Shown: positions 54,292-63,333 of the stretch, piece after piece
Position numbering within the stretch: position 1 is the stretch's first letter
Layout: every line of letters starts with the position of its first letter
The notes under the pieces: generated by a model
What the model saw: only the letters and a program-made list of their open reading frames with translations
Told to the model about the DNA's origin: nothing
The model's database searches: none
Position numbers and translations under genes: made by a program
NCBI GenBank assembly: GCA_017514235.1
Contig: JAFWKK010000016.1
Location: forward strand, 2,221 to 66,220
Source of the DNA: Kiritimatiellia bacterium
GTDB lineage: Bacteria > Verrucomicrobiota > Kiritimatiellia > RFP12 > UBA1067
Direction: 5' to 3'
DNA length: 64,000 nucleotides

Positions 54292-55389
54292 ATGAGAATA
54301 CTTACTCGCTACGTCCTCAGGGAGTTCCTGGTCCCGCTGTTTTACTGCCTGACCGGGTTCATTTCCATCTACGTGCTGTTCGACCTGTTCGGGTCGTTCT
54401 CGCGGATGGCGGCGGCGAAGCTTCCGGCAAAAACGGCTGCGCTGTACTTCTGCGGATACCTGGCCCCCTATTTCCATTACATCGTGCCAGCCGCGCTGAT
54501 GCTGGCTACGCTCTACACAATGTGGAGCTTCTGCCGACACTCGGAGATCGTCGCCATGCGCGCGAGCGGCGTGAGCTTCATCGCGATCGTCCGTCCTCTC
54601 CTGTCCGTCGCTCTTGTGATGGCGGCTTGCGTAGCATACGTGAACGAGGTCTTCGTGCCGCAGAAGGCGCAGTGGGCGGCACAGATGAAGAAAGACCGCT
54701 TCGACCAGGCCAGCATGTCCAAGGGCGACAACATCGTCTTCCGCAACGCACAGGCCGGTCGCATCTGGAACATTGATGCGTTTCGCGACGAGGAGGGCAA
54801 GAGCCTCTCGAACGTCCAGGTCACGATAGACCGTCCGGGCGGGGGGCGGTGCATGAGCGTGTCTGCGCCGAGGGCCGACTATCTTGACGGAGAGTGGTGG
54901 TTCTTCGGTCCCAAGGTGCAGCATTACGGCGCACAGGGTCAGGAGATTGCGACACCGGTGCCTGAACTGGACGCGCTGCCGCTTCGGTGCTTCAGCGATT
55001 TCGGGGAGCGTCCGACGGACTTTGTCATGCAGAACCGTCCGTGGAAGTTCAATTCCGTGCGGGACCGCCTGCGCTATCTCCGCACCCACCCAGAGCTCTC
55101 CGCCGAGACCCGGCGCGACTGCGTGTACGATGTCTGGGCGCAGATTGCGGCGCCATGGGCCTGCATCGTGATCACGCTTTTTGCCATTCCGGCCGGCATC
55201 GCGTCGGGGAGGCAGTCAGTCTTTCGCGGAATCATCGGGGCCCTGGCCATGTACTTCTCGTTCTACGGCGTCGTCATCGCCGGAATGGTCGCTGCCAAGA
55301 ACGGATGGTGTCCGGCGATCCTTGCCGCGCTTTTCCCGTACGCGCTCTTCCTGGCGCTGGGCGTCCGCGCGTTCTGGAAGCAGCGTTGA
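54292..55389 (+). CDS. LptF/LptG family lipopolysaccharide export permease
   Basis: MRILTRYVLREFLVPLFYCLTGFISIYVLFDLF is the YjgP/YjgQ N-terminus; 365 aa with TM segments at both ends. The ATG lies 8 nt after TGCTATAAT. Confidence 0.85.
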   Translation: MRILTRYVLREFLVPLFYCLTGFISIYVLFDLFGSFSRMAAAKLPAKTAALYFCGYLAPYFHYIVPAALMLATLYTMWSFCRHSEIVAMRASGVSFIAIVRPLLSVALVMAACVAYVNEVFVPQKAQWAAQMKKDRFDQASMSKGDNIVFRNAQAGRIWNIDAFRDEEGKSLSNVQVTIDRPGGGRCMSVSAPRADYLDGEWWFFGPKVQHYGAQGQEIATPVPELDALPLRCFSDFGERPTDFVMQNRPWKFNSVRDRLRYLRTHPELSAETRRDCVYDVWAQIAAPWACIVITLFAIPAGIASGRQSVFRGIIGALAMYFSFYGVVIAGMVAAKNGWCPAILAALFPYALFLALGVRAFWKQR

Positions 55390-55415
55390 CAAGGCGGAAG
55401 GGAATTTGGTAAACT
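55386..55415 (+). promoter_or_regulatory. Promoter TTGACA-18 nt-TGGTAAACT (leader peptide and aromatic supraoperon)
   Basis: Perfect -35, which overlaps the lptF/G stop TGA at 55387-55389. An extended -10 is present. The leader-ORF ATG lies 11 nt downstream. Confidence 0.65.
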
Positions 55416-55426
55416 ATTCGCGTCAC

Positions 55427-55492
55427 ATGAACAAGAGCTACCAGATCAAGTGGTTTTACTACTTCGGCTTTACGCCGGGGCGGGCCTGTTAG
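55427..55492 (+). CDS. Candidate aromatic-amino-acid leader peptide (21 aa: MNKSYQIKWFYYFGFTPGRAC)
   Basis: The ATG lies 11 nt after a TTGACA-18 nt-TGGTAAACT promoter. 7 of 21 residues are aromatic, with the run W-F-Y-Y-F-G-F. A terminator-like hairpin follows, and the ORF lies upstream of pheA and the aro genes. Confidence 0.6.
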   Translation: MNKSYQIKWFYYFGFTPGRAC

Positions 55493-55528
55493 CGCTGCGT
55501 TCAGATGACATCGGTCATGAATGAAGAC

Positions 55529-55571
55529 AACGGCCCCGCTCCACAGAAGCGAGGCCGTTTCTCGTTCTCGG
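55529..55571 (+). terminator. Attenuator-type terminator between the leader ORF and pheA
   Basis: AACGGCCCCGCT / AGCGAGGCCGTT pairs at 11 of 12 positions and is GC-rich. The loop is CCACAGA and the tail TCTCGTTCTC is pyrimidine/U-rich. Confidence 0.55.
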
Positions 55572-55614
55572 CCATTCTCCGCAAGAAAGACGATCGAAAG
55601 GAAGAGTCAATCGA

Positions 55615-56763
55615 ATGAAAAATCTGGAAGAGGCACGAAAGGAAATAGACGACATCGACGGACGGTTGGTGCCGCTCCTCAAGAGGCGCCTGGAAATCGC
55701 TGGCGACGTGCTGCGGGCCAAGATCGAGAAGGGCTTGCCGATTCTCGACCCGGCGAGAGAACGCGAGGTGATGGCACGGGTCGCCGAGGAGATCGGCTCC
55801 GGAATGGAAGACGAAGCACGTCTCGTCTTCACCACTCTGTTTGCCATTTCCCGCGCAAGGCAGCGTTCCGCGCTTCCGGACAGGTGTGCGCTTGGAACCG
55901 AGATCGCCGATGCGGTCGCTGCTGCAGGCGGCAAGGCATTCCCGTCGCGCGCCACGGTCGCCTGCCCTGGCACGGAGGGAAGCTATTCGCAGCAGGCGCT
56001 GTGCGCGATGGTCAAGTTCCCGTCGATACTCTACTTCAAGGGGTTTGAGGACGTGTTCATGGCCGTCGAGAAGGGAATGTGCGATTACGGCGTGTTGCCG
56101 ATCGAGAACTCGAAGGCTGGCAGCGTTACCGCAGTCTACGACCTGATGGCACGGCACTCGTTCCGGATAGTCCGTGCGACGCGCCTTCGAATTCACCACG
56201 TGCTGCTTGCCCCGAAGGGCGTGCAGATATCCGACTTGCGCGAAATCACGAGCCACCCTCACGCGCTCGCCCAGTGCGCCAACTTCCTTGCTGCCCATCC
56301 CGGAATCAGGTGCGTGCCGGCGTCCAACACGGCTGCCGCAGCGAAAGAGCTTGCCTCATCAGGGCGTCGCGACAGCGCCGTGATAGCATCGCGCGAGTGC
56401 GCTGTGCTTTACGGGCTCGAGCCGATCGCCGAGGAAGTCTCCGACACCACCAGCAACTTCACCCGCTTCATCTGCATATCAAAACGCGGCGAGATATATC
56501 CGAAGGCGAACAAGATGTCGCTGCTGATGAGCCTCGGGCACCGGCCCGGAGCTCTGGCCGACGTGTTGGTGCGCTTCGCCGCCGTTGGCGTAAACCTCAC
56601 GAAGCTCGAATCGCGGCCCGTGGAAGGGTCGGACTTCGAGTTCCGTTTCATCTTCGAGCTGGAGGCGTCGGTCAATGACGAGCGGACGGTGCGGCTGCTC
56701 ACCGGCCTTGCCAACGACCCGGACATCGAACACTTCACGTTCCTCGGCGCTTACGAGGAATAA
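55615..56763 (+). CDS. pheA: Bifunctional chorismate mutase / prephenate dehydratase
   Basis: N-terminal AroQ-type CM (IDDIDGRLVPLLKRRLEIA), then a PDT domain (ACPGTEGSYSQQA...TSHPHALAQC) and a C-terminal ACT (SLLMSLGHRPGALADVL...ESRP). Confidence 0.92.
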   Translation: MKNLEEARKEIDDIDGRLVPLLKRRLEIAGDVLRAKIEKGLPILDPAREREVMARVAEEIGSGMEDEARLVFTTLFAISRARQRSALPDRCALGTEIADAVAAAGGKAFPSRATVACPGTEGSYSQQALCAMVKFPSILYFKGFEDVFMAVEKGMCDYGVLPIENSKAGSVTAVYDLMARHSFRIVRATRLRIHHVLLAPKGVQISDLREITSHPHALAQCANFLAAHPGIRCVPASNTAAAAKELASSGRRDSAVIASRECAVLYGLEPIAEEVSDTTSNFTRFICISKRGEIYPKANKMSLLMSLGHRPGALADVLVRFAAVGVNLTKLESRPVEGSDFEFRFIFELEASVNDERTVRLLTGLANDPDIEHFTFLGAYEE

Positions 56764-56805: not shown

Positions 56806-57819
56806 ATGATAATAGTGCTGAAGAAGGACGCCGACAAGGGCCAGGTCGAGTCGCTGCTCGGTTGGCTAAGGGCGCGGAACATAAAGCCGAACGTATCTGC
56901 CGGTGACCGTGAAACGGTAATCGGCTGCGTCGGCGACGTAGCGAAGATGGACATCGGACTGGTCCAGGCGCTTAGCGTCGTGGAAAGCGTCCAACGCATA
57001 CAGGAGCCATACAAGGCGGCGAATCGCAAGTTTCATCCAGAGGACACTGTCGTCGACTGCTCCGGCATGAAAATCGGCGGCGGCAACTTCCAGGTGATCG
57101 CTGGGCCGTGCAGCGTGGAGTCGGTCGAACAGATGGTCGGCATCGCAAGGAGCGTGAAGGCGTCAGGAGCGACGCTGATGCGCGGCGGCGCGTTCAAGCC
57201 GCGCACGTCGCCTTACTCGTTCCAGGGCCTCGGCAAGCGCGGGCTTGAGATCCTTCTTGAGGCGAAGCGGGAGACGGGCCTGCCCATCGTCACGGAGCTT
57301 ATGGCGATCGAGCACCTGCCGCTCTTCAACGACGTTGACGTCATACAGATCGGAGCCAGGAACATGCAGAACTTCGATCTCCTCAAGGAGGTCGGCTCGA
57401 TGTCAAAGAAGCCGATACTTCTTAAGCGCGGCATGAGCGCGACGCTGCAGGAACTGCTGATGAGCGCGGAGTACATCATGGCGAGCGGCAACCCGAACGT
57501 CATGCTTTGCGAACGCGGCATACGCACTTTCGAGACGGCTATGCGCAACACGATCGACCTTACGGTGATTCCGGTGCTGAAGAGGCTCTCGCACCTTCCT
57601 GTCGTGATCGACCCGAGCCACGCGACCGGATACGCGCACCTGGTCGAGCCCGTCGCCATGGGTGCGACGGCGATGGGGGCGGACGGGCTCATCATCGAAG
57701 TGCACAACGATCCGCCGCACGCGCTGTGCGACGGCGTTCAGTCGCAGACGCCGGAGATGTTCGCCGAAACCATGAAGAAAATAGCGGCGATCCGTCCGCA
57801 CGCCTGGCGGAGAGCCTGA
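56806..57819 (+). CDS. 3-deoxy-7-phosphoheptulonate (DAHP) synthase, type I-beta with an N-terminal ferredoxin-like regulatory domain
   Basis: MIIVLKKDADKGQVESLL...VIGCVGD is the regulatory domain, as in the Thermotoga-type enzyme. VIAGPCSVES, GAFKPRTSPYSFQG and VIDPSHATG motifs. Confidence 0.92.
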   Translation: MIIVLKKDADKGQVESLLGWLRARNIKPNVSAGDRETVIGCVGDVAKMDIGLVQALSVVESVQRIQEPYKAANRKFHPEDTVVDCSGMKIGGGNFQVIAGPCSVESVEQMVGIARSVKASGATLMRGGAFKPRTSPYSFQGLGKRGLEILLEAKRETGLPIVTELMAIEHLPLFNDVDVIQIGARNMQNFDLLKEVGSMSKKPILLKRGMSATLQELLMSAEYIMASGNPNVMLCERGIRTFETAMRNTIDLTVIPVLKRLSHLPVVIDPSHATGYAHLVEPVAMGATAMGADGLIIEVHNDPPHALCDGVQSQTPEMFAETMKKIAAIRPHAWRRA

Positions 57820-57820
57820 T

Positions 57821-58597
57821 ATGACTGTCGGCATCCGCGGCATGGGGCTTATAGGCGGCTCGTTCGAAAAGGCGTTCCGCGCGGCCGGGCATGAGGTCGT
57901 TGACCTTAAGGCCGCCTCGCCGGAAGCATTCGCCAAGTGTGGACTTGCCGTCGTATGCCTGCCGCCGCGTCTCGTAGCGCCATGGGTAAGCGCACACGCC
58001 GGCGAATTCGCCGACGGCGCGTTCGTCGTCGACGCCGCCGGGGTGAAGGGCGCCGTCTGCCGCGAGCTTGCAGACGTCGCCCGAGCCGCGCACTGGACGT
58101 TCGTCGGCGGGCACCCGATGGCCGGCAAGGAGGTAAGCGGCTACGAGAACTCCGACGCCACGCTTTTCCACGGCGCGTCAATGGTGCTTACTCCGTACGA
58201 CTGGACGCCGCCGGCGGCCGTGGAACGCCTCAAGGAACTTCTCGAGCCTGCCGGCTTCTCGCGCTTCGTAGTAACCGATCCCGATCACCACGACGAGATG
58301 ATAGCCTACACAAGCCAGCTCGCGCACGTCGTGTCGTCCGCCTACGTGCGCGACCCGCTCTCCGCGTCGCACGCCGGCTTCTCCGCCGGCAGCTACCAGG
58401 ACATGACGCGCGTCGCCACGGTCGACCCGGACATCTGGACCGACCTCTTTCTCTTCAACGGCAAGTCGCTCGATGCCGTGCTCGGACGTCTCATCGACCG
58501 TCTCGCCGACTACCGCAACGCCGTTCGCGACGGCAATGCCGCCGCGCTCAGGAGCCTGCTGGCGGAAGGGCGGGCCGCCAAGGAAAGGACGAAGTGA
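57821..58597 (+). CDS. tyrA: Prephenate dehydrogenase
   Basis: VGIRGMGLIGGSF Rossmann motif, GGHPMAGKE, and SQLAHVVSSAY (catalytic His region). Confidence 0.88.
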   Translation: MTVGIRGMGLIGGSFEKAFRAAGHEVVDLKAASPEAFAKCGLAVVCLPPRLVAPWVSAHAGEFADGAFVVDAAGVKGAVCRELADVARAAHWTFVGGHPMAGKEVSGYENSDATLFHGASMVLTPYDWTPPAAVERLKELLEPAGFSRFVVTDPDHHDEMIAYTSQLAHVVSSAYVRDPLSASHAGFSAGSYQDMTRVATVDPDIWTDLFLFNGKSLDAVLGRLIDRLADYRNAVRDGNAAALRSLLAEGRAAKERTK

Positions 58598-59574
58598 TGG
58601 AACTGCCGAACATCGAAGTGGACTTCTCGAAGTTCCCGAGGGCAAAGACGGTCGCGCTGGTCACGGACTCCAACGTGGATCGTCTTTACGGCGATGCGGC
58701 GGTGAAGCGGCTTGAGGCGTCCGGACTGCGCGTTGAGCGCATCGTGTTCCCTGCAGGCGAGCGTTCCAAGACGCTTGACACGTACGCCGAGCTCGTGCGC
58801 GGATTCGCAGCGCTTGGCATGACGCGTGCCGACGTGGCCATAGCGCTTGGCGGCGGCGTCGTAGGCGACCTTGCTGGTTTCGCTGCCGCAACATATATGC
58901 GCGGCATCAGTTTCGTGCAGGTTCCGACCACGCTTCTTGCCATGGTCGATTCTTCCATCGGCGGCAAGACAGGCGTTGACATTCCGGAAGGCAAGAACCT
59001 TGTCGGCGCGTTCCACCTGCCGAGCCAGATCGTCCGTAACGTCGGCTTCCTCGCCACGCTGCCGGAACGGGAGATGAAGAACGGATTCGCCGAACTTATA
59101 AAGACGGCTGTGCTTTTCGATCCTGAACTATTCGCCGCACTGTCGCCGCGTCCTTCGCTAGGCGCACTCGCGCCGCTAGTGGAGCGATGCGCCCGCTGGA
59201 AGGGAGAGGTAGTGGCTGCAGACTTCCGCGAAGTGGGACGCCGAAAGCTGCTCAACCTCGGCCATACGTTCGGCCACGCCATCGAAAGCGCGAGCGGATT
59301 TCGCCTTTCCCACGGCGAGGCTGTGGCTGTCGGAATGCGCATCGTCGGGCGCGATGTGCCGGAAATCGGTGCAATGCTCGACAAATATGGATTTCCTCAA
59401 GCCGACGATGTTTTCTCCGAACCGCTCAACCTGACTCCGGACGATCTGCGCGGCTATCTGGCCAATGACAAGAAACGCTCCGGCGACATGATAACCCTCG
59501 TCGTGCCGAAGCGCATCGGCGAATGCGAACTGAAAGATGTCCCGATGTCGGAACTGGACGCATGGCTAAAGTGA
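58597..59574 (+). CDS. aroB: 3-dehydroquinate synthase
   Basis: TGATG overlap with tyrA. LGGGVVGDLAGFAAATYMRG, VPTTLLAMVDSSIGGKTGV and LNLGHTFGHAIE motifs. Confidence 0.92.
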   Translation: MELPNIEVDFSKFPRAKTVALVTDSNVDRLYGDAAVKRLEASGLRVERIVFPAGERSKTLDTYAELVRGFAALGMTRADVAIALGGGVVGDLAGFAAATYMRGISFVQVPTTLLAMVDSSIGGKTGVDIPEGKNLVGAFHLPSQIVRNVGFLATLPEREMKNGFAELIKTAVLFDPELFAALSPRPSLGALAPLVERCARWKGEVVAADFREVGRRKLLNLGHTFGHAIESASGFRLSHGEAVAVGMRIVGRDVPEIGAMLDKYGFPQADDVFSEPLNLTPDDLRGYLANDKKRSGDMITLVVPKRIGECELKDVPMSELDAWLK

Positions 59575-60581
59575 TAGAACCAGGGCGGCGACGCGGTTCG
59601 GCAACGGTGCCGTCGTCGAAGTCGATCGCACACCGCGAGCTGATAGCGGCGGCGCTTTCCAACGCCGAACCGCCCGTCATTCGCGGCGAATCAAAAGACA
59701 CGCTGGCGACACGCGCATGCCTGAAGGCGATGATGTCAGGAGAAAGCGTCTGGCCGTGCGGCGAAAGCGGCACCACGCTTCGGCTTCTCGAGCCGATTGC
59801 AGGCGTCATGGGCTGGAAGGGAGACTTCGCCTGTGAAGGACGGCTTGGAGAGCGTCCGCGCATGCCGTTCGAGAGGAAGTCTCGCTACGTCGTGCCTGGC
59901 AACGTCTCCTCGCAGTTTGTGAGCGGACTTCTCATGGCGCTGCCGCTTGCCGACTGGGATTCAGAAATAGCGGTCGAAGGCAGGCTGCAAAGCGAGGCAT
60001 ACGTGCGCCTGACCGAGGATACGCTTAGGGCATCTGGCATTTCGTTCGAGCGGCCTGGAGAAGGCGTATGGCGGGTGCCGGGGCGACAGTCATATCGATT
60101 CTGCGGCGGACGCGAGGTTGAGGGCGACTGGTCACAGGCAGCGTTTTTCATTGCTATGGGCGTTGAGGCGAAAGGGCTTCGAGCCGATTCGCTGCAGGGC
60201 GACCGCGCCGTCGTCGGCCTGCTGGCGGAAATCGATTCGGCGCAAGCGGCGGGCGTGACGCTCGACATTTCGCAGACGCCGGATCTTTATCCGGTCCTTG
60301 CCGCATATGCCGCCGCGACCGGACGCGCCGTCGCCTTCACCGGCACCGAGCGGCTGCGACTGAAAGAGTCGGACCGCATAGCGTCAACTGCCGCACTGAT
60401 CGAGTCCGTGCGGCGCGGCGAAACGGTAAAGGCGTTCGGCGACCATAGGATCGCCATGTCTGCGGCCGTAATGGCATGCTATTCAGACAAGCCAATAGCC
60501 ATCGACGACCCTGACTGCGTCGCAAAGTCGTATCCGCGTTTCTGGGATGACTTCGATGCGCTCGAAAGGAGTGCCCCGTGA
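59562..60581 (+). CDS. aroA: 3-phosphoshikimate 1-carboxyvinyltransferase (compact, ~340 aa; start ATG 59562 or GTG 59571)
   Basis: VPSSKSIAHRELIAAAL, GESGTTLRLL, GERP, NVSSQFVSGLLMA, VEGDWSQAAFF, LKESDRI, GDHRIAMS and KSYPRFWDDF motifs occur in the canonical EPSPS order. Confidence 0.85.
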   Translation: MAKVIEPGRRRGSATVPSSKSIAHRELIAAALSNAEPPVIRGESKDTLATRACLKAMMSGESVWPCGESGTTLRLLEPIAGVMGWKGDFACEGRLGERPRMPFERKSRYVVPGNVSSQFVSGLLMALPLADWDSEIAVEGRLQSEAYVRLTEDTLRASGISFERPGEGVWRVPGRQSYRFCGGREVEGDWSQAAFFIAMGVEAKGLRADSLQGDRAVVGLLAEIDSAQAAGVTLDISQTPDLYPVLAAYAAATGRAVAFTGTERLRLKESDRIASTAALIESVRRGETVKAFGDHRIAMSAAVMACYSDKPIAIDDPDCVAKSYPRFWDDFDALERSAP

Positions 60582-61519
60582 AGATCAAGACGTTCGGTGA
60601 ATCCCATGCGCCGGAAATCGGCGTTGAGATGGAAGGCGTGCCGCCGGGAACACGCATAGACATGGATGAGCTTCAGGCTTTCCTCGACAGACGTGCGCCG
60701 GGCAACGGGCAGGGCGGACTTTCGACGCCGCGCCGCGAACCGGACAGGCCTGAGTTCGTCGCCGGCGTCGTTGACGGCATTGCGGACGGCACGACAATCC
60801 GCGCCGTGATCCGAAATACAAACGTGCGTCCGCAAGACTACGCCAACGTTTCTACTGTGCCGCGTCCGGGTCACGCCGACTATGCGTCGTGGCTCAAGTG
60901 CGGAAACATCCCGACGGGCGGCGGCAAGTGGTCGGGACGCATGACCGCACCGCTATGCATTGCAGGCGGCATTGCGATGCAGCTGCTGAAGCGTCGTGGC
61001 ATTGCGGTTTCGTCAGAGGTGCGACGGCCGTCGCTGGACGGCGTGCATTCCGGCGACTCCGTAGGCGGAACAGTGCGTCTTGTCGTCACAGGTTTTCCTG
61101 CGGGCATAGGCGATGCCGGCACGGACGGCATCGAGTCGCGCCTTTCAGCGGCGCTTTTCGGGATTCCGGCCGTCAAGGGCGTCGAGTTCGGCGACGGATT
61201 CGCTCTCGCCGAGATGCGCGGTTCGGAGGCCAACGACGCGTTCGTAGTGGAGAATGGGCGCGTGACGCTCCGTACGAATCATTGCGGCGGCATGCTGGGC
61301 GGCGTCTCGGTCGGAACGCCGATCGTGATCAGGATCGCGTTCAAGCCTACGCCTTCAATTTCCATCGAGCAGGATTCAGTAGACCTTGCGACAATGACTC
61401 CAGTAAAACTGACGGTGAAGGGGCGACACGACCGATGCGTAGCGTTTCGCGGCGCGGTCGCCGCAGAGGCGGCCGTGGCACTGGCGCTAGACGACATGCT
61501 GCAGGAGGCGGGACGATGA
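60578..61519 (+). CDS. aroC: Chorismate synthase (compact, 313 aa)
   Basis: GTGA overlap with aroA. FGESHAPEIGVEMEGVPPG, RPGHADY, SGRMTA, GVEFGDGF and GGMLGGVSVG motifs. Confidence 0.9.
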   Translation: MKIKTFGESHAPEIGVEMEGVPPGTRIDMDELQAFLDRRAPGNGQGGLSTPRREPDRPEFVAGVVDGIADGTTIRAVIRNTNVRPQDYANVSTVPRPGHADYASWLKCGNIPTGGGKWSGRMTAPLCIAGGIAMQLLKRRGIAVSSEVRRPSLDGVHSGDSVGGTVRLVVTGFPAGIGDAGTDGIESRLSAALFGIPAVKGVEFGDGFALAEMRGSEANDAFVVENGRVTLRTNHCGGMLGGVSVGTPIVIRIAFKPTPSISIEQDSVDLATMTPVKLTVKGRHDRCVAFRGAVAAEAAVALALDDMLQEAGR

Positions 61520-62664
61520 AGGCCGGGCTGCTGGGCCGTCGCCTCGGCCATTCCCTCTCGCCGCAGATACACCGCTTCTTCGGCGACTACGACTATTGCC
61601 TTTACGAACGCGAACCGGAGGATGTGGCGGACTTCGTACGCGAATCAGGACTGGACTTTCTGAATGTCACGATTCCCTACAAGCAAACTGTCGCGCATAT
61701 CTGCGACGAACTGACGCCCCTTGCCGAACGGCTCGGCAACGTCAATCTCGTCACACGTCTTTCCGACGGACGGTTTCGCGGCGACAACACTGACTACTTC
61801 GGGTTCTCGCAACTGCTTGACTTTGTCTGCGCGGCGGCAGGAAAGGCCGTGCCGCCGCGTGCGGCGGTTCTTGGCGCGGGCGGAGCCGCGCTTACGGCGA
61901 AGGCTGTGCTTGAGGACCGTTGCGAGGAGGTTGCGCTCGTTCGGCGAGGAGAAATTCCACCGCAGGACGCAGAAATCATCGTGAACGCGACACCGGTCGG
62001 AATGTTCCCAGATGTAGACGGTCGGCGAATCGACATCGCCGGGTTCCCTGCATGCGAAATCGTGCTTGATCTCGTGTACAACCCTTCGCCAACGCGACTC
62101 GTAAGGGAAGCAAGGGCGTGCGGCAAGACTGCAGAAGACGGCATGGTAATGCTTGTTGCACAGGCGTACCGTGCGTTCCAGCTAGCGTCGCCTGACGCGT
62201 CCGCACCCGCAGGGAACCTCTACATTTACGGCCCTCCGGCGTCAGGGAAGACGACTTGGGCGAGGAGGATTGCGGCGGCAACGGGCGCCACCCTTGTTGA
62301 CATAGACGAGGAGATCGTACGCAAGGAGGGACGGACTATTGCCGACATCTTCACTAATGACGGAGAAGCAACGTTCAGGCGCATCGAAAAGGCGACGTTG
62401 GCACGTGTCGCGTCTTCGAGAGGGCAGGTGGTTGCACTCGGCGGCGGCGCACTTCTGGACGATGAATCGCGCAGCATTGCAGAGGCGACAGGTCGCGTGG
62501 TTCTGCTGGAATGTCCCGAAGGGGAGCTGCTGCGGCGTGCCGCAAATTCGTCTGACCGCCCTCTTCTTGCCGGAGACAAGGCGAACAGGCTTGCAGCCTT
62601 GCTTGCCTCGCGCAGGAATCACTATGCCTCGTTTCCCGTAAAGATTTCGACATGGCGTCAGTAA
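61516..62664 (+). CDS. aroE/aroK: Shikimate dehydrogenase - shikimate kinase fusion
   Basis: ATGA overlap with aroC. The N-terminal part has LGHSLSPQIH, NVTIPYKQ, GDNTDYFGF, LGAGGAA and NATPVGM. The C-terminal part has IYGPPASGKTT (Walker A), DIDEEI, FRRIEK and ALGGGAL. Confidence 0.88.
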   Translation: MKAGLLGRRLGHSLSPQIHRFFGDYDYCLYEREPEDVADFVRESGLDFLNVTIPYKQTVAHICDELTPLAERLGNVNLVTRLSDGRFRGDNTDYFGFSQLLDFVCAAAGKAVPPRAAVLGAGGAALTAKAVLEDRCEEVALVRRGEIPPQDAEIIVNATPVGMFPDVDGRRIDIAGFPACEIVLDLVYNPSPTRLVREARACGKTAEDGMVMLVAQAYRAFQLASPDASAPAGNLYIYGPPASGKTTWARRIAAATGATLVDIDEEIVRKEGRTIADIFTNDGEATFRRIEKATLARVASSRGQVVALGGGALLDDESRSIAEATGRVVLLECPEGELLRRAANSSDRPLLAGDKANRLAALLASRRNHYASFPVKISTWRQ

Positions 62665-62688: not shown

Positions 62689-63333
62689 ATGAATAGCAAA
62701 GAGAAAGTCAAGGCATGCCTTGCGGCGACGAAGGTCGTCGCAATCATTCGCGGAATGGCGCCTGAAACATGCGTCAGGCTGGCGGAGGCATATCATGAGG
62801 GCGGCATACGCCTGGTGGAGGTCACGTTCGACCAGACAGGCGACCCGGAGGCTACTGTGGCGGCCGTTCGGGCGGTTCGTGCGGCGTATCCCGACATGCA
62901 TGTCGGCGCCGGGACCGTCGTGACGGCAACCCAACTGGACCGTGCGATCGCCGCAGGGGCGGAATTCATCGTCACGCCGAACTGCAATCCACAGATCATC
63001 AGCGCGGCCGGGACCGCCGGGCTTGTCACGATGCCTGGCACGTTCACGCCGACGGAAATGGAGATAGCTCACGAGGCAGGTGCCGACTACGTCAAGGTTT
63101 TCCCGGTCCGCGCGTTAGGTCCGGCATACGTCAAGGACGTCCTTGCCCCTCTGAAGCATCTGAAGCTGATTGCCGTCGGAGGCGTGTCGCCGGAGAATGC
63201 TGCGGACTACATCAAGGCCGGCTGCATCGGCGTCGGTGCAAGCGGCTCGCTGGTGAACAAGGAATGGATTGCGGCAGGCGAGTACGGTCGTATAGCCGAC
63301 GTCGCCCGGAGGCTCGTTGAAAATTGCCGTTGA
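62689..63333 (+). CDS. KDPG/KHG aldolase family protein (second Eda paralog), last gene of the aromatic operon
   Basis: AAAGGAGGA Shine-Dalgarno 24 nt after the aroE/K stop. VVAIIRG, VEVTFDQ, GAGTVV, IVTPN, MPGTFTPTE, VKVFP and AVGGV motifs. Confidence 0.8.
   Translation: MNSKEKVKACLAATKVVAIIRGMAPETCVRLAEAYHEGGIRLVEVTFDQTGDPEATVAAVRAVRAAYPDMHVGAGTVVTATQLDRAIAAGAEFIVTPNCNPQIISAAGTAGLVTMPGTFTPTEMEIAHEAGADYVKVFPVRALGPAYVKDVLAPLKHLKLIAVGGVSPENAADYIKAGCIGVGASGSLVNKEWIAAGEYGRIADVARRLVENCR

Follow-up and report, generated by a model that had tools for sequence, protein, structure and literature searches.

The leader region upstream of pheA

The window analysed here, i.e. the whole 64-kb stretch (64,000 nt) of contig JAFWKK010000016.1 from a Kiritimatiellia bacterium, carries an operon for aromatic amino-acid synthesis, and this report is concerned with the leader region immediately upstream of the first gene of that operon, pheA. 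Between an LptF/LptG-family permease gene (lptF/G) and pheA lie, in order, a promoter, a short open reading frame (ORF) of 21 codons, MNKSYQIKWFYYFGFTPGRAC, and an intrinsic terminator whose 5' arm can alternatively pair with the 3' end of the ORF (Table 1). The ORF, the promoter, the terminator, the alternative pairing and their geometry, all of which are seen in the sequence, in comparison with relatives and in folding, are those of a candidate leader-peptide attenuator, and a re-reading of the sequence finds the promoter, ORF, terminator and pheA start exactly where the initial annotation of this DNA had placed them.

Aromatic amino acids account for 7 of the 21 residues of MNKSYQIKWFYYFGFTPGRAC and for up to six in a stretch of eight. 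The two strands of the window together hold 550 ATG ORFs of 10–45 amino acids (aa), and only the leader ORF has at least five aromatics in any eight residues; of the ~107,000 stop-free eight-codon stretches in the six frames, only three reach six aromatics, two of them within the leader ORF. In other words, the aromatic content of the ORF is far beyond chance. The 64-kb window was also scanned for further leader-type ORFs followed by a terminator, and no credible example emerged.

Conservation of the leader in relatives

Relatives were collected as 160 loci that encode PheA relatives, from genomes and metagenomes, and ten more were added by exact protein look-up. Close relatives (96–68% PheA identity) keep the pattern M-x-K-x-Y-Q-x-x-W-[FY]-[FYL]-Y-F-G-F (leaders MNKSYQIEWFYYFGFTSGRVC, MNKSYQFAWFYYFGFTSERVRSC, MKKSYQFGWYFYFGFTPERVRSC, MSKNYQFAWYLYFGFRPERVRAC, MSRNYEYAWRFYFGFTPERELAC and MNNILQFAGYFSYGFTPERVRAC), and the differences among them are synonymous (TAC/TAT), swaps of F and Y, or an in-frame 6-nt indel, a pattern that points to conservation of the leader as a coding unit. 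The gene upstream is not lptF/G in these relatives; it is an ABC ATPase gene, aroA, a GFO/IDH-family gene or an isocitrate/isopropylmalate dehydrogenase-family (Iso_dh) gene, and because the upstream gene differs, the element can be said to travel with pheA.

These observations bear on one alternative, namely that the ORF is a chance or untranslated one, that the hairpin does no more than terminate transcripts from lptF/G or insulate against them, and that pheA is expressed from elsewhere. There is no terminator between the lptF/G stop codon and the leader, the leader hairpin being the first downstream of lptF/G, and the ORF lacks a Shine–Dalgarno sequence, all of which speak for this alternative. 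However, the element stays with pheA or aroF although the upstream gene changes, a conserved promoter separates lptF/G from the leader ORF, the aromatic frame is kept through synonymous changes and F/Y swaps, and the ORF is unique among the 550 small ORFs of the window. We regard this explanation as extremely unlikely; the comparative data largely refute it.

Two other reading frames overlap the element: a GTG ORF at 55450-55524 (VVLLLRLYAGAG..., with the run VVLLLRL), and a 37-aa ORF at 55505-55618 that spans the terminator and ends in the ATGA of pheA. Neither was retained as coding, their reading frames being unconserved in relatives. Could the GTG ORF nevertheless be the sensing frame, i.e. 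a leucine-type leader? Its frame does carry L-L-L-R-L and is followed by the same terminator, but it is interrupted by a stop in one relative (L166) and lost in other clades (by eye, from the peptides), its start lies inside the aromatic ORF and far from the promoter, and the regulated genes belong to the aromatic pathway, not to that of leucine. We give this idea virtually no credence, and the non-conservation of the frame refutes it.

Distant lineages were scanned for small ATG ORFs that combine four or more aromatics in eight residues with a hairpin and a T-tail, and this returned peptides that are unrelated yet rich in F, Y and W (for example, MTRTAYFFFGYWYFAFEKRGAASCC and MNNNRYFYFSFFYFAFTKRGVS). 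Each of these leaders precedes the first gene of its operon, such that the leader stands before aroF where the order is aroF-pheA. The element, i.e. an aromatic ORF with a promoter and a terminator hairpin before the first aro-operon gene (pheA or aroF), was found in 50 of 107 Kiritimatiellia-type loci, and in this respect the relatives bear out the initial annotation, which had suggested looking for it there. The 41 distinct leaders contain 2–8 F and 0–4 Y, with W present in 29 of the 41 and mostly exactly once. Additionally, the element occurs in two deltaproteobacterial metagenome-assembled genomes (MAGs; L059 and L062, order aroF-aroB-pheA) and in an unassigned contig (L157); mixed aromatic leaders such as MDRKLNAINNFYGYWFYTYFALVCPSRTED come there with a terminator unrelated in sequence, to which the antiterminator is matched (z -3.4 and -4.8).

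A related element is found at locus L012. Its F-W-W leader, MSKLVNNTFWWRLHASEAR, starts 8 nt after TGTTAAAAT and precedes a TrpB-like pyridoxal phosphate enzyme (L012:497-1888; NF009057, 670 bits), which is followed by pheA. Leader codon identity thus tracks the regulated gene, which argues for amino-acid sensing by translation.

The aromatic-leader element is not found at L003, L019 or L115. Two Kiritimatiellia loci with the aroF-pheA order (L024 and L039) have no aromatic leader in the ~130–200 nt 5' of aroF; a TTGACA-17-TAGAAT promoter is followed there by a non-aromatic ORF, MKAMLSDDVVRLRNFRYGAGS.... At L167:1-330, 5' of pheA, a run-of-N scaffold gap is flanked by a duplicated partial leader ORF, which looks like an assembly artefact inside the attenuator.

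Competing RNA structures

In the terminator, AACGGCCCCGCT pairs with AGCGAGGCCGTT at 11 of 12 positions around a 7-nt loop (CCACAGA), with a single mismatch, C55536 x A55552. The full stem is followed by TCTCGTTCTC; if the two terminal A-U pairs are assigned to the tail instead, the tail reads UUUCUCGUUCUC. A strong hairpin, with fold energies of -19 to -34 kcal/mol, and a U-rich tail next to it are present throughout the family. A conserved CATGAATGAAG before the terminator appears to be an A-rich tract pairing with the U-tail.

The competing helix, the antiterminator, joins GGGGCGGGcCUGUU (55477-90) at the end of the ORF to AACGGcCCCGCUCC (55529-42) in a helix of 13 bp that is interrupted by a single C x C mismatch. 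The initial annotation had proposed a shorter pairing of CGGGGC (55476-81) with GCCCCG (55533-38). These motifs are indeed exact complements, and the two strands are the same as those of the helix described here, but the 6-bp register has a probability of 0.00 in every constrained ensemble (see below), the favoured register being 55477-55490 x 55529-55542, and a further hairpin, P1, had been overlooked. The 5' strand of P1 consists of codons F13 and G14, and its 3' strand shares the first 3 nt of the antiterminator strand; P1 is the analogue of a segment 1:2 structure and could serve as a pause or anti-antiterminator hairpin. Within the loop of the antiterminator structure, a small spacer hairpin has equivalents, recognised by eye, in L163 (CUGGC/GCCAG) and in L166 and L081 (UGAC/GUCA). 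The antiterminator register of the window also suits close relatives; L081, for example, has GGAGCGGG x CCCGCUCC where the window has GGGGCGGG.

A covariance model of the P1-to-terminator region finds one match in the window (55457-55566, 84.7 bits, E 8e-21) and ~50 loci at E <1e-5. Pairs in the named structures were counted on a plain MAFFT alignment of 28 sequences. For P1 and the terminator together, 88% of cells are paired, as against 34–56% with the partners slid, and covariation is 0.248 versus 0.139 in shuffles, with 0 of 500 shuffles as high; for the antiterminator, 71.8% of cells are paired versus 41–54% slid, and covariation is as high in 1 of 500 shuffles. Covariation, a check that the initial annotation had put forward, is thus seen for both sets of helices. 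The figure of 71.8% understates the antiterminator signal because the alignment blurs clade-specific registers. In P1, five of the six pairs are 95.7% paired and one pair covaries (CG 15, GC 10, GU 2, AU 1), and in the terminator stem 86% of cells are paired and six pairs covary. One terminator position is unpaired in 15 of the 28 sequences (alignment columns 99 and 120), and its equivalent in the window is C55536 x A55552; C55536 is paired with G in the antiterminator helix and mismatched in the terminator. This mismatch may be a built-in kinetic barrier to displacement of a formed antiterminator by the terminator 3' arm, tuning the competition between the two helices. RNAalifold, run on a first MAFFT alignment (17 sequences, full leader), recovered only six terminator pairs because clades were misaligned, and the shorter alignment replaced it.

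An alignment-free comparison also supports the antiterminator. In 32 of the 41 leaders, the leader 3' end pairs with the terminator 5' arm better than do at least 95% of same-locus control windows (median percentile 1.3%, mean z -2.4). The antiterminator covaries with wholly different terminators, for example in L002 (CAGGG/CCCUG), L027, L140, L059 and L062, and in L121 it is a perfect helix of 14 bp. The geometry is also kept: a ribosome that has reached the stop codon would cover the antiterminator strand in 40 of 41 leaders, whereas a distance of at least 13 nt separates 79% of the family's aromatic codons from that strand on its 5' side.

Given such RNA structures, might the switch be real but set by something other than the ribosome? 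A trans-acting factor or ligand (a TRAP-like protein, a T-box tRNA or a metabolite) could be responsible, with the ORF a by-product of U-rich RNA, and it is true that the alternative structures are the best-supported part of the element and that translation of the ORF is something we infer. However, cmscan of 55200-55800 at E up to 10 returned neither Phe_leader nor Trp_leader, the T-box and known leaders being among the families without a match, and gave only chance hits (mir-2071 and HgcE); across the whole 64 kb, no Rfam family reached its gathering score. Furthermore, conservation 5' of P1 lies in the frame that is read and in the class of aromatic codons, not in nucleotide sequence or structure, and a W-W version of the leader stands before the TrpB-like gene. 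All but one of the 41 leaders have the antiterminator at the stop codon, a placement that only a ribosome-based switch explains. We judge a trans-acting factor to be very unlikely.

It could also be asked whether the peptide itself is the effector, either as a TnaC-like arrest peptide that senses free aromatic amino acids within the ribosome or as a small functional hydrophobic protein. The leader peptide is hydrophobic, and there seems to be conservation past the aromatic run, in residues such as F-T-P-E-R and T-R-G. This C-terminal conservation, however, falls on the RNA antiterminator strand (GCGGGGC or GGAGCGGG) and shifts with every change in the sequence of the terminator; from clade to clade the peptide varies freely in length and sequence, with aromatic content and position kept; an intrinsic terminator, not a Rho site, is 3' of the ORF; and the hallmarks of TnaC (conserved W12, D16 and P24) are absent. 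A peptide effector is, in our estimation, very unlikely indeed.

Promoter and start of translation

The -35 element of the leader promoter overlaps the lptF/G stop codon, and an 18-nt spacer separates it from an extended -10 element. The site scores 10 of 12 matches plus the TG, and one such site was found versus 0.4 expected in shuffles. TTGACA or a near match lies 17–18 nt 5' of the -10 in most relatives, despite their differing upstream genes, and all but two of the 37 Kiritimatiellia leaders have a TGnTAnnnT motif on their 5' side (35 of 37).

The -10 box ends 11 nt before the leader ATG, for which the predicted 5' untranslated region (UTR) is ~4–6 nt, and no Shine–Dalgarno sequence precedes the ORF. 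Across leaders the gap between -10 and ATG is bimodal, at 4–14 nt in 22 and 20–29 nt in 15, and many of the longer-gap leaders have a GGAA-type Shine–Dalgarno sequence (judged by eye); in the closest relatives the gap is conserved at 8–12 nt. In the same window, TGnTATAAT-like extended -10 motifs are found 7–12 nt before the start codons of long ORFs (96–594 aa; Table 1), such that leaderless expression appears to be routine in this Kiritimatiellia genome. A near-leaderless start of the leader, as judged from promoter spacing, is plausible because of the conserved 8–12 nt gap in the closest relatives and the same layout at other genes of the window, and the suggestion of the initial annotation in this regard can be kept.

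Ribosome position and the proposed switch

The window transcript was folded under a 28-nt mask that represents the ribosome and was set at different positions; the terminator probability was 0.86 with no ribosome, 0.01–0.21 with the A site at W9, F10, Y11 or F13, and 1.00 with the A site from F15 through the stop codon. With the A site at W9, F10, Y11 or F13, the helix 55477-90 x 55529-42 has a probability of 0.64–0.94; with no ribosome, the antiterminator strand is held by P1 and neighbouring helices.

We conclude that the region is very probably a ribosome-mediated (leader-peptide) transcription attenuator. The initial annotation had read it in this way, and the ORF, promoter, terminator and alternative pairing before the pheA-aroF-tyrA-aroB-aroA-aroC-aroE/K operon are conserved in relatives. 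The mechanism that we envision is as follows. The promoter, of the sigma-70 type and with an extended -10, would start transcription ~4–6 nt 5' of the leader AUG, and the near-leaderless RNA would be loaded by a ribosome that trails the polymerase. If a tRNA for Phe, Tyr or Trp runs short (three candidates, going by codon content), the ribosome would stall at W9-F13 (55451-55465), its footprint would melt P1 (55463-79), and the freed strand 55477-55490 could pair with the terminator 5' arm, 55529-55542, before the 3' arm is made; the terminator would then be blocked, and transcription would read through into pheA and seven further genes. With ample aromatic tRNAs, the ribosome would reach the stop codon (55490-92) and mask the antiterminator strand, the terminator (55529-59) would form, and transcription would end near 55560-70. 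Without translation, P1 and its neighbours would hold the antiterminator strand, making termination the default, which would also insulate the operon from lptF/G read-through. In other words, the output of the whole shikimate/Phe/Tyr operon would be set by the supply of charged aromatic tRNAs.

Several observations weigh against this attenuator model, in whole or in part. The U-tail is interrupted (UCUCGUUCUC), and a simple terminator scan made no + strand call; the hairpin was missed since T makes up just 4 of the 8 tail bases that come directly after the full stem. A predicted 5' UTR of ~5 nt is not strictly leaderless. In constrained folding, an A site at Y12 leads to termination, via a pairing that spans the masked ribosome and is probably unphysical. 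At equilibrium with the whole terminator present, the terminator is dominant at every ribosome position in ~2/3 of members, and with a ribosome placed at each codon, only in ~1/3 of the 41 leaders does the terminator become less probable at the aromatic codons. Because the terminator usually dominates at equilibrium, the switch would have to be kinetic, as in classical attenuators, and because it would be kinetic, equilibrium folding of the 41 leaders is uninformative. The element was not found at 57 of the 107 Kiritimatiellia loci, of which many end short upstream and some clearly lack it. Finally, as summarised in PMC11802643, the aroR leader of Corynebacterium glutamicum responded to Phe limitation only, not to Tyr; since only Phe limitation mattered there, tri-aromatic sensing cannot be assumed from codon content.

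The operon and other features of the window

The eight genes from pheA to a KDPG/KHG-aldolase-family gene overlap or are separated by gaps of at most 42 nt, and no convincing + strand terminator was found within the operon. A Kiritimatiellae MAG encodes a protein with 100% identity to the PheA of the window. The single ORF aroE-aroK joins shikimate dehydrogenase to shikimate kinase, and the KDPG/KHG-aldolase-family gene is not one that would be expected in an aro operon. Ten ORFs were scanned, and none was recognised as a dehydroquinase gene.

Table 1. Positions of the leader elements, the neighbouring and operon genes, other extended -10 motifs of the window, and related elements at other loci
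Feature	Position	Strand	Remarks
Leader ORF, 21 codons + stop, MNKSYQIKWFYYFGFTPGRAC	55427-55492	+	Frame and aromatic run kept in relatives
Regulatory aromatic codons W9 F10 Y11 Y12 F13 (predicted)	55451-55465	+	Constrained folding; a ribosome stalled here would free the antiterminator strand
P1 hairpin, UUCGGC (55463-68) x GCCGGG (55474-79), loop UUUAC	55463-55479	+	Folding and covariation
Antiterminator strand, GGGGCGGGCCUGUU	55477-55490	+	Codons 17-21 and first base of the stop; pairs with 55529-55542
Spacer hairpin, UGAC-AUCG-GUCA	55505-55516	+	Within the loop of the antiterminator structure
Intrinsic terminator hairpin, AACGGCCCCGCT (55529-40) x AGCGAGGCCGTT (55548-59)	55529-55559	+	11/12 pairs
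U-rich tail, UCUCGUUCUC	55560-55569	+	Weak; could be extended by the UU that ends the stem
-35 element, TTGACA	55386-55391	+	Overlaps lptF/G stop TGA (55387-89)
Extended -10 element, TGgTAAACT (TG 55407-08, TAAACT 55410-15)	55407-55415	+	Promoter scan; 18-nt spacer to -35
lptF/G (LptF/LptG-family permease)	54292-55389	+	Upstream neighbour of the leader; stop TGA at 55387-89
pheA (chorismate mutase / prephenate dehydratase / ACT)	55615-56763	+	Pfam CM_2 + PDT + ACT; first gene of the regulated set
aroF (DAHP synthase with FXD, ferredoxin-like domain)	56806-57819	+	Pfam
tyrA	57821-58597	+	Pfam
aroB	58597-59574	+	Pfam
aroA	59523-60581	+	Pfam
aroC	60578-61519	+	Pfam
aroE-aroK fusion	61516-62664	+	Pfam
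KDPG/KHG-aldolase-family gene	62689-63333	+	Pfam; last of eight operon genes
Extended -10 motifs before long ORFs	4223, 8458, 13093, 44817, 47995, 51212, 54275 (lptF/G, start 54292)	+	Window scan
Extended -10 motif before long ORF	35752	-	Window scan
Antiterminator helix, L002			GGAGCAGGGUCUC x GACGGCCCUGCUCC
Antiterminator helix, L140			CGGAUUCGGUCU x GGGCCGAAUCUCG
Antiterminator helix, L059			UGGUCUGCCCAU x AUGGGUGGAUCA
Mixed aromatic leaders outside Kiritimatiellia, e.g. MDRKLNAINNFYGYWFYTYFALVCPSRTED	L059:157-249, L062:157-252, L157:272-391		5' of aroF-aroB-pheA
Related attenuator with F-W-W leader MSKLVNNTFWWRLHASEAR	L012:340-500		ATG 8 nt after TGTTAAAAT

Relation to known leaders

The ilvL (Leu/Val/Ile) and thrL (Thr/Ile) leaders of Enterobacteria are classic multivalent leaders. 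As in the leader described here, one peptide joins codons that represent more than one end product of a pathway with branches; the pathways and amino acids are different, and initiation is by a Shine–Dalgarno sequence. The claim of the initial annotation that classical leaders are enriched for a single amino acid, and a mixed leader unusual, was therefore overstated in view of ilvL and thrL, and the Phe-Tyr-Phe leader aroR (PMC11802643) is a further counterexample.

According to the summary of Neshat et al. 2014 in PMC11802643, aroR of C. glutamicum carries Phe-Tyr-Phe before aroF, and stalling at its Phe/Tyr codons raises transcription. As summarised there, aroR is like the present element in being a mixed aromatic leader before a DAHP synthase operon, and many Kiritimatiellia leaders likewise precede aroF; however, it is actinobacterial, and its aromatic motif is one of three codons without Trp, whereas the Kiritimatiellia family has 4–9 aromatic codons, usually with one Trp, and a much larger operon. 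The likeness to the window leader is functional only.

Classical leader-peptide attenuation is exemplified by trpL and pheL (PMC11802643, PMC3082878). A classical counterpart is pheL-pheA of Escherichia coli (Rfam Phe_leader; PMC3082878, PMC11802643), in which a short ORF with aromatic codons and a terminator/antiterminator pair precede a gene for chorismate mutase/prephenate dehydratase and follow the same four-segment logic. In contrast, pheL has runs of Phe only and a Shine–Dalgarno sequence and controls pheA alone, whereas the window leader is mixed in F, Y and W, has a near-leaderless start, and would control eight genes that include the common pathway and the Tyr branch; no similarity in sequence or structure between the two was detected by Rfam at E up to 10. 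The element uORFC-13-1 of Acholeplasma (PMC8632094), which is a comparative genomics prediction only, has a Phe-codon upstream ORF (uORF) by an intrinsic terminator 5' of aroF. It differs in belonging to the Mollicutes, in having a ribosome-binding site and a U run that codes for at least one Phe, and in lacking a mixed F/Y/W run. A precedent for amino-acid sensing by a leaderless short ORF that controls a downstream operon is provided by the mycobacterial polycysteine ORFs (bioRxiv 10.1101/834739), which sense cysteine and are actinobacterial; the leaderless start of the window leader, by comparison, is deduced from promoter spacing.

Mixed-aromatic leaders (aroR), multivalent leaders and leaderless leaders are thus already known, and the design found in the window is a sensible variant of them that should not surprise. 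What is undescribed is a well-populated family; its mechanism is ordinary. Ten of the leader peptides are absent, by exact look-up, from a collection of 15 billion proteins and are therefore named by no source, and full-text literature searches turned up no description of attenuation in Kiritimatiellia or of an aromatic leader in Kiritimatiellia or Deltaproteobacteria. We lean, by somewhat better than an even chance, towards the view that this is an undescribed and widespread Kiritimatiellia family, with deltaproteobacterial look-alikes, in which a single and often leaderless leader integrates the charging of Phe, Tyr and Trp tRNAs and gates the whole pathway, with the terminator mismatch possibly acting as a kinetic barrier.

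Implications

Our understanding of attenuation itself is unchanged by these findings. The family does, however, add ~50 loci that are unrecognised by Rfam, and the covariance model could be used to annotate such operons and to find Trp-type variants like that of L012. The leader would be a natural example of multivalent sensing, i.e. of three amino acids being read by one leader, and a likely case, outside Actinobacteria, of a leader peptide made from leaderless or near-leaderless RNA. For Kiritimatiellia, a gut and rumen lineage known here only from MAGs, the proposed attenuator offers a concrete regulatory model for the synthesis of aromatic amino acids.

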